The position numbers were made by a program, and so were the translations under genes. Shown in pieces: positions 30,362-42,226 of a stretch of DNA of 64,000 nucleotides. This DNA is from Proteromonas lacertae (taxonomy: Eukaryota), in contig NGBS01001160.1 of assembly GCA_002245135.1 (NCBI GenBank), forward strand, positions 248,001 to 312,000. Direction: 5' to 3'. The notes under the pieces were generated by a model. It saw nothing but the letters and a program-made list of their open reading frames with translations, was not told where the DNA came from and did not search any database. Positions within the stretch are counted from its first letter, which is position 1. The number at the start of each line of letters is the position of its first letter.

Positions 30362-33300
30362 ATGCTTTATTTATTTTTAATAATATTATTATTAAATGGA
30401 ATAAATTGCTTCGATACTTCTGTTGGGTTTTTGCATGGTACTGATCCTGCATATTACGCTTTGTTCGAACAACTAGTAAACCACTATAAAACTGAATTGG
30501 GCATTACAATTACTCCAATTGATAAAGACGCAAGTGATCATGACAAATATAATACTGCCATTAATGAATTGAAAGCAGACAAAATAACTATAGCATTTGG
30601 TATATTTAAAATGGATGATCCTGCATGGTATGATGATATTGCCAGGTCTGCAGGAGTTTATATTTTCAACAGCATGTTAGACTATAATATCACCACCTGT
30701 CTCACAAACATTATAATAAATCGATCCCCATGTGATTCTGATAATTCTGGATCAGAGCACTTCTCTCAAGAGTTCAAAGTTCATAGTGTGACTTGTATCA
30801 AAGAATTCACCAATTCAACCTTGTTTAGAAGATGCTGGTCAATGCGTAAAGTCAAAAGGATTTGATTTGAATGAGATTAAGTATGATGCTACTACTGTTG
30901 AAGATGAGTTTAAAAAAGTGAAAAGCTGATCATCCAGAAGGATCTACTATATATGTATATGTAGAAAAGGCTCAAGAAAGTGCATTAGTTACAGCATATC
31001 AAACTGCAGGACTAACATCTGACAAATATCCTCTCGTTTTCTTTCATGATGCTACTTACTCAGATATTATAAGTAAATCAGAAAATAAAGGTCATTATTT
31101 AATGACTGAATTACACGATTTATCAATGGATGCAAATATTGAAGCATTAATGGAAGTGAATAGTGTTAAATATCACAGAAATTATGATGCTTTATATTTG
31201 TATATTAATACAGTTTTTATTTATTTTTAAATAGATTAGGAATGATTCATATATACTTCAACAAAGCCAAATCATTAGATTCTACAGATACTACAAGTAT
31301 TATCTATGGATTATATTATACAAACTACAAAATCAACAACACTGAATTTGAATTGTTTCCTAACAATCGTGTTATGACAAATTCATTATTAATTAAATTC
31401 AATGGAGCTGATACTCAACCAGATGTTACTGGTTTTACCAATGCCAGATAGAATACAATACAGTACATCTCCTGGTCGTCCAGCTATTAATATATGTAAT
31501 CATTTAGATGATAATCCAATAGCTTCTGCTATTTATGTCATTTTTATGGTTTATACTTCTGGTGAATATAAAGAAGTTGAAAGGGGTATTTTAGATGCAA
31601 TGTCTGTTGCTGTAAAATATATTAATGCAAAAGCACCTTTATTAAACAAAGAAATTGTTCCTATTTATATTGATGCTAATGTAAATTTTGATATTATTGT
31701 TCAATATATTACTGAAGTTGAAAAACAAATGAAAGTTGTAGCAATGTTTACTACTTTAGTATTGGATGATTTTAACAGGCTTATTGAAAGTATATCTATA
31801 TTTATTTATTCAATATTTAGCAAGAAAATTCTCATATCCAGTTTATTCATTGTTAAATACACCTGGTGAAAAATGTACTAATACTTATTTATCAATATCT
31901 TTTTATTTTTTTATATTTACAATATATTATTATGATTCTTTAACTTTATATAAACTGGTATACCAATATCATTATCCTTTGAAATTGTCAATCAGTATTT
32001 CATTAGAAACAAAAATCCAAGTGTGTTTGTCTTATACAGTGATAAATACTTTGGAAGTGTTGCTTATGAAGCTTTAAGCACTTTAATCGTAAATGAAAAC
32101 ATTAATAAAATTGGTGAATATATGTTTGAAGAAAACACAGCTGCTCAAAGTGTGAATGCTTGTGCATCAATCTATGAAAGTTGTACTGATAGTATATATT
32201 TTATCTATATTTATTTAATATATATAGATTGTTATATTATTGATATTGCTGAAAGAGAATTTGATTATTTATTCTATACCAATTGCTTTATGAGTAATAC
32301 AACAACAATGAATTCTAAAAAATTTACAGTATTTTCATTTACTATGGATGAAAACTCATTGAACATACTTAAAGATTTACCACCATCTAGTGGTAATATA
32401 TCCAATTTAGACGGTCATTACGTTATTTCATATTACTTTGATTCTATGGATAGTGAAATTGGCAAATCAATAAAAGCTTCTTTAAAAGAAAATTTCTATT
32501 ATAAAGAGTTTACTTCAATTATGGCAACCTCATATAATACTATTTTCTTATGGGAAGAGTCAGTTAGAATTGCCCATTCTTTTGATTATGAACTTGTTAA
32601 AAAGTATTTCTATTGTTATTATTATGTTATTTAATAGAACTTTAACTCCCTCTCATTATGAAGGTGCTGGTGGTAAATTCTTTATAAACAAGAAAGGAGT
32701 AATTAGCGCACAAATACACATTGGAATTGTATTAATATATTTATTTATGTTTCTATTTAGATAAACAATGGAACAATACAATTAGTTTCTTATAGTTATT
32801 TTTTAACAAACGGATTTGTTTTTACAAACAGAGATCAAATATGTGATTTTCAATCTGGAATTGCATCAGCGCAACCAACAAAATATGTTGGATTCTTTGT
32901 GAATAGTGATGGTTATATAGGTAAATTGATGAATACTTATACAAAGCCAATACCTATTGTTATTGATTTCTTAAACGATGAAGGAGGTTCAAATGGAATT
33001 ATTATTCAATTGTTATATTTAGATATAGAAAAATTCAACAATGAAGAATATATGAATGAAATGGATAAAAAAGTATTAGTCTATCTTGGAACTAATTCAA
33101 ACGATTTTAGAAGCAGAGTTCAACAGTTTTTAATAAAGAAAAAGAAGATATTATTCAGTATAATGCCAGTTACAGGTGAACAATGTTTATCAAATGTTAT
33201 TAATGTTGGTAGACTTCCTCATCATTATCATCCTCATATGTTGATTTATCATTTCATTAGATCAGTTAATTGTGCTTTTGTTGCTGCTTGGGATGAGTAT

Positions 33301-39300: not shown

Positions 39301-42226
39301 AGATCCAAAGATATTGAAAGTTGCTTCAATTATCAATACAGGTAGTGCAGATTCTAGTTATAAAGTATTAGATGAATTGTGTAAAAATGGAATTTCTGGT
39401 AATACAAATACAATCTATTCTTATTCATATTCAAAATTCCACACTTCAGAAGCTAGACAAGAATGTATAGATAATACTCATTATCTAACAACATTTATAC
39501 AAGAATTAGGAGATCCAGATTCTGATTCATTAACATATCAACCAATTGCTGAAAAATTTGTTAGTTCATTATATGATAATTATGGAAAACAGACCAGTTT
39601 TGGTTGTTATCATGAAGCTGCTTATACAAGTGTTATGTTATGGTCAGAAACAGTGAAACATGTAAATTCATTTGCTGTAGAAGATGTAAGAAAGATTATT
39701 TATGGATTTAAAATAGCTGGTCCAACAGGAACAACAGAAATGTCAGTTAATGGTTATGCTAATCGTGTTATATATGAAATAACAGTCAGTGCTGGTCCAA
39801 CAGTAAAAGTAACTCAATTTTCAGAAACTCCAATTGAAGCTGAAGCTTATAGCCAGTGGTTCACTTATAATAAAGGTTATAGATGTGATTGGAGTAGCAC
39901 AGGTTTAGGTAAAAAGTATATTCCAGATAATATAAAGATATTCTTAATTCATGATTATAGTGATGGTGCAAATAAGTTTGAAGAAAGAGAAGCTGCAATT
40001 CTGGAAAGTTATTTGATTAATAATATCAATAGAAACTTCTTGAATGAAAAATTCATTATCTCTTATCTACAATTTTCTAATAATTTAGAGGAATTAAGCA
40101 ATATTACTGCAAATATATCAAGTAATGAAGAAATTAAATTGCTTTTTGGATGTAGAACAACTGAATGCAAGAATGTGGTGGCAAAGTATGCTGAACAGAA
40201 TCAGAAATTATATATTTACCCTGGTATAAGTGAAGGTAATACCTGTTCGAAGTATGTATTGAATGTAGGAAGTACATCAAGTCAGACATTGAGAAATACA
40301 TTAGAATATTATTACACAACAGAAGGAATAACAGATTACATATATGTAGGAAGTAATTCAGAAGAATATCCTTTTTTATATATTATTATTATTAATTTAT
40401 ATTTTCTTTAATTCTAGTTTCTTACTGATGTAAATGAGTTAAGTAATGTAGAAATATTTTTAAAGAAGTATTATGATTTAACATTAAAACATACATTTGT
40501 TATTACAAACGAAACAGATGATGATACATTAAGATCAATAATTGGATCTATCAAGAATGATAAAGGAGAGGGAAAATTAGTTAGTATTTATTCATTATTT
40601 TATTATTCTTTAGTTTTATTTTACTTAACTGGTGATCTTAGTAAGAGATTTTTAGATGCTTATATAAATATTGCGTTAAAGAGTAGAGACTATCCAGTAG
40701 TATTCTTCAGATACTTCACATCTGATTATACAACAGAGTATTTGAAACAATTTGAAGGTGGAAGTATCATAACTGCATTTTCTGAAGAATTGAAATATTC
40801 TCAAGCTCGATCATATGTTAAAAACATCAAACTATCAATGCATTCAGGTTTTTCAGTAACTCAATATATGGACTTCATATCAACAGGATTTGAGTTATGG
40901 CAAAATGCAATGATTCAAGGTTATAGTGATAGTGGTGAACAATCTCCTCCATTCGATTATTTGAGATTGAATTTAGTTGGTTCAGAAGTGTCAGTTACGG
41001 CAGGTAGAGTGTCAGTTGAAAAATCAAATTATATTTCTAGAGGCATGTATTTAATGGAGATTAGTAACACAGGTGAATTATTCCAAGTATATCCTTCAAA
41101 AGGAACAATTAAAACATATGAAGCTGATCCATATATTGGGTCATTACCATCTGAGTGTAATTTTGGAAAGTCAATCAAATATTATGAATACAATTCATCG
41201 ATGTTGGCTGTATTTTATTGTTTATTTGGAATTGGTTTATTATGCGGTTTATTGTCTGTTATTTTTGTTACTGTTCATTATAATCATCGTGTTATTACAT
41301 CATTTGGAAAAGTTCATAATTTCTTATATTCATTCTATTTGGTGTTATTATCTTTATCAAGTTTACCATTAGCTGCTTATCCAAATAGTGATATAGTATG
41401 TTGGAATAGAATATGGATGTTAGCATTTGCTGTGAAAGGAATTTTAGCGTTGTTATTAGCCAAAGGTACAAATCTATGGAAACATTATAGAAACAAGCAA
41501 TCTGTAAAAGTGTTGAAATCCAAAATTACAATTGTAAGAATAATGTCATATTGGTTGCCTTTGAATGTCATTGAAGCTGTGTTGATTATAATATTTGCAA
41601 TTATTAATAACATGCAGTATATATTAATATATATTTTTTTTATTTTATAGTAAAGAAGAAGTGTATAGTTTGAAGTTTAGTGATTATTTCACAGATGTTT
41701 ATATTCGACAATGTACAATGAATACTGTGTTTATGTATTTATATATTTATATTTATATTTAATTCATTATCATTTGTATAGAGTGATTGAATTAGTTATT
41801 GATGGATTAGTAGTTGTGTATTTAATAGTAATTACATGGCAAACTAGAGGTACAGCCAATGAGTATCAAGATTCTCTACCAATGTGTGCTTCTTCAGTTG
41901 TAGTTGGTTTATTTGGTACAATTATGGTGGCTTTAGATTTCAGTGTTAATTCCGAACCAGATTCTGCTTTGTTGATAAGAGCAATGGGAGTTCAACTTAT
42001 TACTATATTATTAGCTGTTTTACATTATGGTTTGAAATTCGTTAATACATATTTGAATGAAAACGCAGTTGGAATATCTGAATCAGGAAGTGCAGTTATT
42101 CATTCTGCTGTTGGAACAACCAGTTCAATGTCTGCTTCAACCCTTCAATATTCAACATTGAGAGGAATTAATCAAAGAAATGCTTTAACAACCACATTTA
42201 AAGATCATAACACAAAATTGAAATAA
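30362..42226 (+). CDS. Giant class C-like 7TM receptor with about nine tandem UrtA/AmiC-like Venus-flytrap domains (roughly 3,700-3,800 aa)
   Basis: Signal peptide MLYLFLIILLLNGINC; same-strand ORFs linked by short introns and single-base shifts; recurring motifs A..EIN..GG.L, V(V/I)FG, YFY....G..C, Y.A..LW..AV, F.AP.G, C(D/N)(W/F/Y); 7 hydrophobic helices at ~41200-42050. Confidence 0.85.
31895..31953 (+). other. Candidate U12-type intron with AT-AA ends
   Basis: ATATCTTT donor, TTCTTTAAC branch-like motif at 31936-31944; removal yields in-frame TYLS|TGIP. Confidence 0.6.
40366..40425 (+). other. U12-type AT-AC intron (60 nt)
   Basis: ATATCCTT donor, TTTTCTTTAAT branch-like motif, TTAC acceptor; removal deletes an in-frame TAA and keeps the frame open. 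Confidence 0.8.

Follow-up and report, generated by a model that had tools for sequence, protein, structure and literature searches.

The question raised by positions 30362-42226 on the + strand of this stretch of Proteromonas lacertae DNA is whether its many short open reading frames (ORFs) encode one receptor with numerous binding domains or a series of more ordinary products. The stretch, hereafter the window, comprises 64,000 nucleotides of contig NGBS01001160.1 (assembly GCA_002245135.1). A sequence-only reading had joined about 20 ORF fragments into one gene, running from a signal peptide to a seven-transmembrane (7TM) domain, and had proposed a class C-type G-protein-coupled receptor (GPCR) with bacterial-type Venus flytraps. 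In the present analysis the locus is resolved as a single gene of 21 coding blocks, with 14 short introns and six +1 frame breaks. The 11,340 coding bases specify 3,779 amino acids (aa), from an ATG at 30362 (an alternative in-frame ATG lies upstream, at 30269) to a TAA at 42224-42226. The product consists of a predicted signal peptide, nine flytrap modules of 350-394 aa (M1 to M9), a 14-residue linker, seven transmembrane (TM) helices and a tail (Table 1). Overall, it seems somewhat likely that this one gene encodes a nine-flytrap class C-type GPCR with a GABA-B-like 7TM domain, which would probably sense small molecules and relay flytrap closure through M9.

The stop-to-stop ORF fragments on the + strand between 30233 and 42226 merge into one reading frame. 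They were joined by a dynamic program based on codon usage and introns, after which the frames were inspected by eye and compared with homologous proteins, here given handles such as P0003. Over 11.3 kb the model requires no read-through of in-frame stop codons, and its codon-usage score is positive along the entire gene. The continuity proposed earlier holds in that a single frame can be reconstructed, but in the DNA as given this frame is interrupted by the six +1 breaks. The fragmentation could also be taken as a sign of separate genes, some for secreted binding proteins and the last for a conventional GPCR with a single flytrap. This seems scarcely credible, since M4b to M7a are contained in one 1,027-aa ORF, the ORFs of M7 to M9 overlap by frame breaks only, and a single exon (40616-41614) carries both the C-lobe of M9 and TM1-4. 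Moreover, neither a start codon with a signal peptide nor a stop is found at the module borders of the gene model, and in homologues one uninterrupted ORF, at most 3,745 aa long, encodes five to nine modules together with a 7TM domain.

The identity of the single gene's nine modules follows from several kinds of comparison. The domain scan that the sequence-only reading had suggested as a check places M5-M9 above the Pfam threshold, and M2-M4 and M1 are recognized by profile search and by HHalign, respectively. In M5-M9 the Peripla_BP_5/6 scores are far above threshold (for example, 9.4e-66 for the ORF at 34743-37826). Peripla_BP_6 covers profile positions 4-332 in M5, and Peripla_BP_5 covers positions 2-359 in M6 and 3-359 in M8, matches M7 with an E value of 5e-27 (ORF 37816-38739) and matches both halves of M9. 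M7 is also covered by the orthologue P0001, which is 53% identical. In M2-M4 the Pfam matches are partial, and in M2 they fall on two exons. A profile built from M5-M9, however, detects M2 with an independent E value of 7e-16 (profile positions 6-358), M3 with 8.5e-19 and M4 with 4e-10. M3 is collinear with P0003 and P0007, and the latter, an orthologue fragment with about 41% identity, also covers M4. M1, the most diverged module, is found weakly by the same profile (1.4e-4), and its exons have no Pfam Peripla_BP match, only a below-threshold match to DUF4923 on one exon. Aligned with the module profile by HHalign, M1 reaches a probability of 96.4% and an E value of 1.2e-9 over 279 columns. 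The module profile search recovers nine domains in the receptor protein. The nine Cys motifs reported previously as closing the modules, from CNH to CNF, were all matched exactly, and the earlier module starts lie within 0-74 nt of the refined ones.

Among solved structures, the best relatives of M6 and M8 are the urea-binding proteins UrtA 8HIC, 7S6F and 7S6E, which align over the full length with E values of about 1e-22 (M6 to 8HIC, 7e-23; M8 to 7S6F, 4e-22), and the match to AmiC is weaker. The AlphaFold2 model of M6 (pLDDT 85.7, pTM 0.87) gave Foldseek TM-scores of 0.85 with UrtA, 0.81 with AmiC, about 0.75 with LivJ/K and 0.66-0.69 with the flytraps of mGluR5 and GABA-B. Because UrtA and AmiC outrank the mGluR5 and GABA-B flytraps in these matches, the modules belong with the bacterial UrtA/AmiC flytraps rather than with the ANF_receptor flytraps of animals. 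The modules are thus UrtA/AmiC-type (Peripla_BP_5) type I binding-protein domains. A model of M5-M6 together (771 aa; pLDDT 87.8, pTM 0.86) has low confidence at the inter-module linker only. The type I periplasmic-binding fold, also put forward earlier as a check, is therefore predicted for M6 and for the M5-M6 pair. The packing of M5 against M6 in this model appears fixed, which suggests that the ectodomain may form a semi-rigid rod.

The cysteine pair of UrtA, formed by an EG.xC motif and a C-terminal Cys, is kept in nine of nine modules and also in the bacterial proteins P0041, P0034 and P0025. Judged by this conserved pattern, the terminal Cys motif is the second half of the UrtA pair and not a class C cysteine-rich domain. 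The pair is predicted to form a disulfide, a bond not mentioned in the paper passages on UrtA covered by the search.

The C-terminal part of the protein contains seven hydrophobic 19-residue segments, at aa 3472-3712, and elsewhere only the signal peptide and one buried strand are comparably hydrophobic. The exon at 40616-41614 matches 7tm_3 with 45.0 bits against a cut-off of 33.5 (E 1.3e-11, profile positions 2-139). Seven helices and 7tm_3 similarity had likewise been named as a check, and both were found, the latter above the gathering score. An alignment to P0003, whose own 7tm_3 match reaches 82 bits over profile positions 2-240, spans all seven helices. When a family profile (alignment A3, with P0003 as its first row) was compared with solved structures, the GABA-B2 7TM domain (e.g., PDB 6W2X and 7C7S) was the best match, with an E value of 9e-34, followed by GABA-B1, the mGluRs, GPR156 and CaSR. 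The receptor also possesses cysteines at the top of TM3 and in the second extracellular loop, as well as an AK..N.W stretch at the end of TM3, which we take to be class C hallmarks. The 14 residues between the end of M9 and the TM1 region lie in the same exon, and this linker (NFGKSIKYYEYNSS) contains no Cys-rich stretch, that is, no cysteine-rich domain. Such a domain is present in the mGluR, CaSR and taste receptors and absent from GABA-B. Its absence therefore agrees with the GABA-B subtype and does not argue against class C membership. Pfam, sequence and fold matches to Protein Data Bank (PDB) entries, the TM scan and full-length homologues thus agree with the combination of bacterial-type flytraps and a class C 7TM domain that had been proposed. 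Despite the likeness to GABA-B in the 7TM domain and in the short linker, GABA-B possesses one ANF_receptor-type flytrap per chain, in contrast to the nine UrtA-type flytraps found here. In addition, signalling as a heterodimer and coupling to G proteins are established properties of GABA-B, whereas here a dimer and G-protein coupling are predicted.

The reconstruction of one frame requires single-base skips at six sites (Table 1), and the nature of these breaks affects whether the gene is functional. Homologues bear on three of them. P0001 (1,529 aa, 53% identical) forms a single alignment to model residues 1695-3214, spanning breaks 5 and 6, and P0007 (779 aa, about 42% identical) aligns to residues 889-1653, spanning break 4 and three introns. 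In the window, +1 breaks of the same kind affect at least five other genes, and no -1 break has been confirmed, which points to insertions introduced by the assembly or to a peculiarity of the organism as a whole. Because orthologues read through three of the breaks and at least five other genes show +1 breaks only, the six breaks are read as insertion errors of the assembly, and the gene is probably intact in the organism. If the breaks were real instead, this copy could be a pseudogene in decay, derived from a multi-flytrap receptor that formerly functioned. The density of +1 breaks, six over 11.3 coding kb, is higher than in the rest of the window, and the orthologue ORFs are uninterrupted at the three equivalent places, as decay in this copy would have it. 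Decay is nevertheless improbable, given that breaks of the same type and direction occur in the other genes, some of them clearly conserved, that the receptor gene contains neither deletions among its breaks nor nonsense codons to read through, and that it retains usable boundaries at all 14 introns and a positive codon-usage score throughout.

A functional gene with real breaks could be translated by programmed +1 ribosomal frameshifting, and every resolved break in the window is +1, with no -1, across several genes. At break 6, the P0001 sequence SLTPRIWKRYINDGIYICDLQSG agrees with the new frame from its first codons, 15 codons ahead of the stop of the old frame, and a shift at the stop codon is therefore excluded there. 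In Euplotes, the known frameshifting sites are at stop codons. Comparison with the orthologue places both breaks 5 and 6 upstream of the old frame's stop, unlike those sites. Moreover, a common motif was not seen at the six sites, and most of them contain short homopolymer runs, which are typical of sequencing errors. Frameshifting is consequently very improbable, and assembly errors remain the preferred explanation. Not all genes nearby are affected, as the 4.5-kb ORF of a second GPCR and the CCT gene are free of breaks. One ORF pair, at 19755-20937 (-), can be joined only by two opposite (+2) steps and may represent a missed intron or two genes.

The receptor is not a solitary case. A HMMER search of 1.84 billion representative proteins returned 963 matches at E<=1e-3 and 24 at E<=1e-30. 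Among the 150 matches listed, 46 are at least 1,000 aa long. Three to nine modules are present in 35 of these, eight of which additionally possess six or seven hydrophobic segments past the last module. When Pfam was run on 21 of the matches, 7tm_3 was found together with nine Peripla_BP_5 domains in P0002 (3,745 aa, a single ORF), seven in P0003 (3,012 aa), six in P0010 (2,643 aa) and five each in P0012 (2,668 aa) and P0019 (2,016 aa). P0003 is collinear with the receptor from M3 to the C-terminus at 31% identity. Thirty clusters were looked up, of which 23 have three or more modules, all of them Logan or JGI records; 22 of the 23 are nameless, and P0028 has a generic urea-binding-protein label. 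Where sources give names, these are 'urea transport system substrate-binding protein' or similar, on bacterial proteins from metagenome-assembled genomes. The ORFs of several long relatives lie on contigs just a few hundred bases longer, which resembles transcripts. In composition most relatives are rich in N, I, Y and K, like the receptor protein, and P0002 and P0028 come from GC-richer organisms. A word-indexed protein search with the 1,027-aa ORF ('longer' and 'near' lengths) found nothing, a limit of sensitivity, as HMMER found the family; a search of the ESM Atlas returned only prokaryotic single-domain binding proteins.

The order of the modules appears to be an old feature of this family. 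In a tree of 65 modules (quick IQ-TREE, SH-aLRT support), M5-M9 each cluster with the modules at the same position in P0003 and P0012, and one level further out with those of P0010, P0019, P0011, P0073 and P0035. Support for this grouping by position is 96-98 for M6-M9, and M5 falls within a clade with a support of 96. M9 clusters with the last module of P0003, P0012, P0010, P0019, P0073 and P0035, and no receptor module is the nearest relative of another receptor module. It follows from the position-wise grouping that a five-module core with a 7TM domain was ancestral to this group. By the same sequence comparison, the N-terminal modules are extra, faster-evolving additions to this core. The array is old because its modules group by position across family members, and the modules within the receptor are correspondingly diverged: alignments longer than 200 aa are obtained for just six of the 36 pairs, at about 20% identity. 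This bears out the earlier view that the tandem expansion is ancient. P0002 is different in that its modules cluster near one another and near bacterial proteins. Five of its nine modules retain the full set of urea-contact residues, and a sixth, which is cut at its N-terminus, keeps those that are present. These residues lead to the prediction that P0002 serves a eukaryote as a receptor for urea or small amides. A wider proposal is that the family consists of combinatorial chemosensors, in which five to nine flytraps would read different small molecules and integrate them mechanically, and whose founder would have been a GPCR for urea or amides, built with a UrtA gene of bacterial origin. This is possible but somewhat doubtful.

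For the receptor itself, several observations weigh against the reading as an intact class C GPCR that senses small molecules. UrtA contacts urea through W120, S122, Q144, Y190 and N246, and mutation of any of these residues abolishes or strongly lowers binding, as stated in the available excerpts of PMC10392092. The complete set is present in none of the nine modules, each of which has at most one of the five residues. Pocket positions are identical to those of P0001 in 22 of 34 cases, as compared to 53% overall, and to those of P0003 in 20 of 60 cases, as compared to 33% overall. M9, which is expected to be the signalling module, keeps two of seven. The pockets could thus be dead, and ligand binding is a prediction. 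Additionally, the receptor gene contains six of about 11 frame breaks in the window, which exceeds its coding share. The 7tm_3 match of the last exon is weak when taken alone (14.6 bits, E 0.026), although its order is correct (profile positions 170-246), and when PDB chains were searched with the single sequence of the TM1-4 exon, class C receptors were absent from the matches at E<=1. Lastly, pTM is the structure model's own measure of confidence.

The observations on the pockets give weight to a different role, in which the eight flytraps distal to M9 would serve passively, as a stalk or a projection of the adhesion type, and ligand would be bound by M9 only or not at all. Such an array might hold the receptor head far from the membrane or contact surfaces or prey, in the manner of adhesion GPCR ectodomains. 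The loss of urea-contact residues from all nine modules would be consistent with this role, as would pocket positions that evolve about as fast as the remaining protein, and the fixed packing in the two-module model would suit a rod. The tandem periplasmic flytraps of BvgS, moreover, act as one mechanical unit according to the accessible part of PMC4352136. In spite of this, a mere spacer would need neither a two-lobed hinge fold in nine copies nor position-specific conservation across paralogues. Pocket positions are kept relative to the 53%-identical orthologue P0001 at eight of nine sites in M6 and seven of nine in M7, and the urea-contact residues of P0002 make multi-site binding likely in at least one family member. 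A purely passive stalk, the main rival, is accordingly rather unlikely.

The preferred reading, a small-molecule sensor, requires that the pockets were remodelled for non-urea ligands rather than lost, for which the positions retained in M6 and M7 are thin evidence. Cavity-lining residues corresponding to Y141 and E146 of UrtA persist in some modules. With the urea contacts lost, the modules appear to be flytrap-like but not urea binders. In the proposed mechanism, one or more flytraps would close on small molecules other than urea. Neighbouring modules would pack in a fixed manner, so that the ectodomain forms a semi-rigid rod able to relay changes in shape. Closure would then be passed along this rod and through M9, which would occupy the place of the usual class C flytrap, to the 7TM helices. 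By analogy with other class C receptors, the protein would couple to G proteins, probably as a dimer. A complex prediction for two copies of the last flytrap of P0003 (residues 2286-2690) returned no answer (score 0.00, mark 0.32).

To our knowledge, characterized class C GPCRs have one flytrap per chain throughout, and models of class C activation place a flytrap dimer directly atop the 7TM domain. Arrays of five to nine flytraps raise the question of how, and whether, the helices sense the closure of a domain that lies tens of nanometres away from the membrane. The closest relatives of the modules, UrtA (8HIC, 7S6E and 7S6F) and the amide sensor AmiC (1PEA), share the full-length match, the fold and the Cys pair. 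UrtA, however, is a free single-domain protein that passes urea to an ABC transporter, whereas the receptor fuses nine such domains in series with the urea contacts replaced. The bacterial sensors BvgS, EvgS and CdgH contain flytraps with the type II binding-protein fold. Like the receptor, they possess more than one flytrap in series on one membrane sensor chain, described as pairs in the portion of the source available (PMC4352136). In contrast to the receptor, they are bacterial, with two flytraps and a histidine kinase or diguanylate cyclase output instead of a 7TM domain.

Among eukaryotes, the receptors of gut fungi and Dictyostelium resemble this one in joining a class C 7TM domain to a binding-protein domain that is not of the ANF type found in animals. 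In gut-fungal class C receptors the ectodomain belongs to the type II fold or resembles pectin lyase, with a length of no more than about 1,600 aa, as described in excerpts of PMC5168858, and the dictyostelid Grl receptors carry ANF or BMP domains, as described in excerpts of PMC10445921. Those texts mention one binding domain or give domain types without mention of repeats, in contrast to the nine type I modules and the ectodomain of about 3,450 aa of this receptor. These receptors show that binding proteins have been fused to class C 7TM domains more than once. A eukaryote-wide survey refers, in its accessible text, to species-specific configurations that appear in a supplementary figure only, and a survey of ciliates reports no family C GPCR in the part available (PMC9960496). 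No class C GPCR with more than one flytrap was found in full-text searches of the literature, which leave aside the architecture figures and supplements of PMC3971589, PMC10445921 and PMC5168858, any of which could hold one. The architecture was earlier said to have no described counterpart; this stands for the literature, but the receptor is not a one-off, since a family exists. The multi-flytrap class C receptors thus constitute a previously undescribed family and a variant of a known receptor class. They add to the cases in which a class C 7TM domain has acquired a bacterial binding protein, in this instance one of the UrtA/AmiC type. The modules, being compact, diverged in their pockets and pinned by a predicted disulfide, are candidate scaffolds for biosensors. 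For annotation, genes of this kind end up split into many ORFs and mostly nameless.

The 14 introns of the gene total 519 nt. Twelve are GT-AG introns of 26-47 nt, and two lack GT-AG ends (AT-AA and AT-AC). The exact interval of intron 3 is dictated by the reading frames and by a conserved C-x7-G spacing. Removal of intron 11 produces a gap-free alignment to P0003, and the genomic ORF of P0001 stops inside the equivalent place. Introns of the U12 type have a 5' /ATATCC-like site, a 3' end that is not AG and, 10-15 nt ahead of it, a branch site similar to TTCCTTAAC. Both non-GT introns match this pattern (ATATCT..TTCTTTAAC..AA and ATATCCTT..TTCTTTAAT..AC): they begin with ATATC(C/T)TT, contain a TTCTTTAA(C/T) box and terminate in AA or AC. 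The window contains six occurrences of the motif pair compared to a mean of 2.9 in 100 shuffles, which does not amount to enrichment. Because the pair does not exceed chance in AT-rich DNA, introns 3 and 11 are described only as U12-like, an assignment we infer from their motifs. The same pattern is seen at two further sites in the window, 8243-8295 (+) and 854-790 (-).

Several alternative introns were rejected. A 19-nt intron at 34736-34754 would remove VLNYLTGD, which is conserved in M9 and P0007, and introns of 31 nt at 37801-37831 and 25 nt at 38724-38748 would remove residues that P0001 possesses. A 72-nt GT-AG intron at 40346-40417 would remove VGSNSE.., which both P0001 and P0003 possess. 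With a TT-AG gap at 40376-40417 the alignment to P0003 has a 6-aa gap, and the AT-AC intron at 40366-40425 was used instead. An AT-AC reading of 31895-31955 destroys both the frame and the C-x7-G spacing. Typical introns in the window are 24-58 nt long, at least 85% A+T and begin with GTA; a pattern scan for such introns yielded 31 + strand and 24 - strand candidates.

Table 1. Features of the receptor gene and other frame breaks in the window (positions in the window; residues refer to the 3,779-aa model).
Feature	Position	Strand	Remarks
Start codon and predicted signal peptide	30362..30409	+	MLYLFLIILLLNGINC; hydrophobic segment aa 1-19
M1	30410..31497	+	aa 17-366, CNH at nt 31495
M2	31498..32844	+	aa 367-751, CDF at nt 32842
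M3	32845..34065	+	aa 752-1128, CKF at nt 34063
M4	34066..35273	+	aa 1129-1520, CSY at nt 35271
M5	35274..36434	+	aa 1521-1907, CNY at nt 36432
M6	36435..37586	+	aa 1908-2291, CDF at nt 37584
M7	37587..38737	+	aa 2292-2674, CNL at nt 38735
M8	38738..39886	+	aa 2675-3057, CDW at nt 39884
M9, membrane-proximal	39887..41158	+	aa 3058-3451, CNF at nt 41156
14-residue linker	41159..41200	+	last Cys of M9 to TM1 region; gene model translation
7TM domain	41201..42022	+	seven hydrophobic 19-mers; Pfam 7tm_3; gap-poor alignment to P0003
TM1	41219-41275	+	hydrophobic segment
TM2	41321-41377	+	hydrophobic segment
TM3	41411-41467	+	hydrophobic segment
TM4	41549-41605	+	hydrophobic segment
TM5	41730-41833 (spliced)	+	hydrophobic segment
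TM6	41876-41932	+	hydrophobic segment
TM7	41966-42022	+	hydrophobic segment
Cytoplasmic tail and TAA stop	42023..42226	+	about 67 aa; gene model translation
Break 1, one surplus base	30791..30862 (overlap of frames)	+	placed at 30827 in the model
Break 2, one surplus base	30921..30926	+	at an AAAA run; placed at 30924 in the model
Break 3, one surplus base	31393..31448	+	modelled in TTTT run at 31436
Break 4, one surplus base	34755..34769	+	follows LTGDLF; placed at 34767 in the model; uninterrupted in P0007 and P0003
Break 5, one surplus base	37809..37823	+	ATAAAG, modelled at 37813; uninterrupted in P0001 (..AIADACE..) and P0003
Break 6, one surplus base	38690..38698	+	AGTTCC, modelled at 38691; about 15 codons upstream of old frame's stop
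Intron 1	31200..31234	+	GT-AG, 35 nt; frame support only
Intron 2	31790..31820	+	GT-AG, 31 nt
Intron 3	31895..31953	+	ATATCT...TTCTTTAAC...AA, 59 nt, putatively U12-like
Intron 4	32192..32227	+	GT-AG, 36 nt, in frame
Intron 5	32604..32637	+	GT-AG, 34 nt
Intron 6	32729..32760	+	GT-AG, 32 nt
Intron 7	33297..33328	+	GT-AG, 32 nt; gap-free P0007 alignment over junction
Intron 8	33740..33771	+	GT-AG, 32 nt; P0007 and P0003 alignments cross junction
Intron 9	34010..34035	+	GT-AG, 26 nt; P0007 alignment crosses junction
Intron 10	34458..34488	+	GT-AG, 31 nt; P0003 aligns across; P0007 has a 7-aa insert there
Intron 11	40366..40425	+	ATATCCTTTT...TTCTTTAAT...AC, AT-AC, 60 nt, putatively U12-like
Intron 12	40584..40613	+	GT-AG, 30 nt, in frame; gap-free P0003 alignment across
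Intron 13	41617..41650	+	GT-AG, 34 nt, after TM4
Intron 14	41735..41781	+	GT-AG, 47 nt, within TM5
Other +1 break	near 29863	+	SPRY-like domain
Other +1 breaks	near 51040 and near 53600	+	one coiled-coil gene
Other +1 break	near 56007	-	kinase
Other +1 break	near 42897	-	within conserved motif of oxidoreductase-like gene

The window as a whole is AT-rich, with a GC content of 0.23-0.32 in 2-kb steps. It contains genes for the chaperonin CCT-eta, histone H3 and several protein kinases; no tRNA was found in it, and the module hidden Markov model detected no other flytrap gene elsewhere in the 64 kb. The standard genetic code applies. A ciliate origin is unlikely, since neither TAA nor TAG occurs within the long ORFs and the ciliate survey (PMC9960496) lists no family C GPCR. 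A reassigned stop codon was considered for an in-frame TAG of the CCT gene and rejected, since this TAG sits within a 42-nt GTATAT...TAG intron. The CCT-eta gene, at 21966-23735 (-), contains this one in-frame intron. The proteins closest to its product are unnamed (97% and 86% identity), and the nearest named relatives are those of stramenopiles (oomycetes, Cafeteria, labyrinthulids, diatoms and a brown alga), at 54-69% identity, a hint at a stramenopile affinity of this AT-rich organism.

A second class C-type GPCR is encoded at 2914-7431 (-) by an intact ORF of 1,506 aa, free of introns and frame breaks, with a 7tm_3 match at E 9.5e-36. Its ectodomain consists of about 1,000 residues that match no recognized type, followed by a Filamin repeat and an Invasin_D3-like domain, the latter below threshold. 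Histone H3 is encoded at 54303-54743 (-) by a gene with an intron. Protein-kinase genes lie at 9657-10916 (+), 13953-14756 (-) and 54930-58246 (-), and some of them possess two tandem kinase-like domains.

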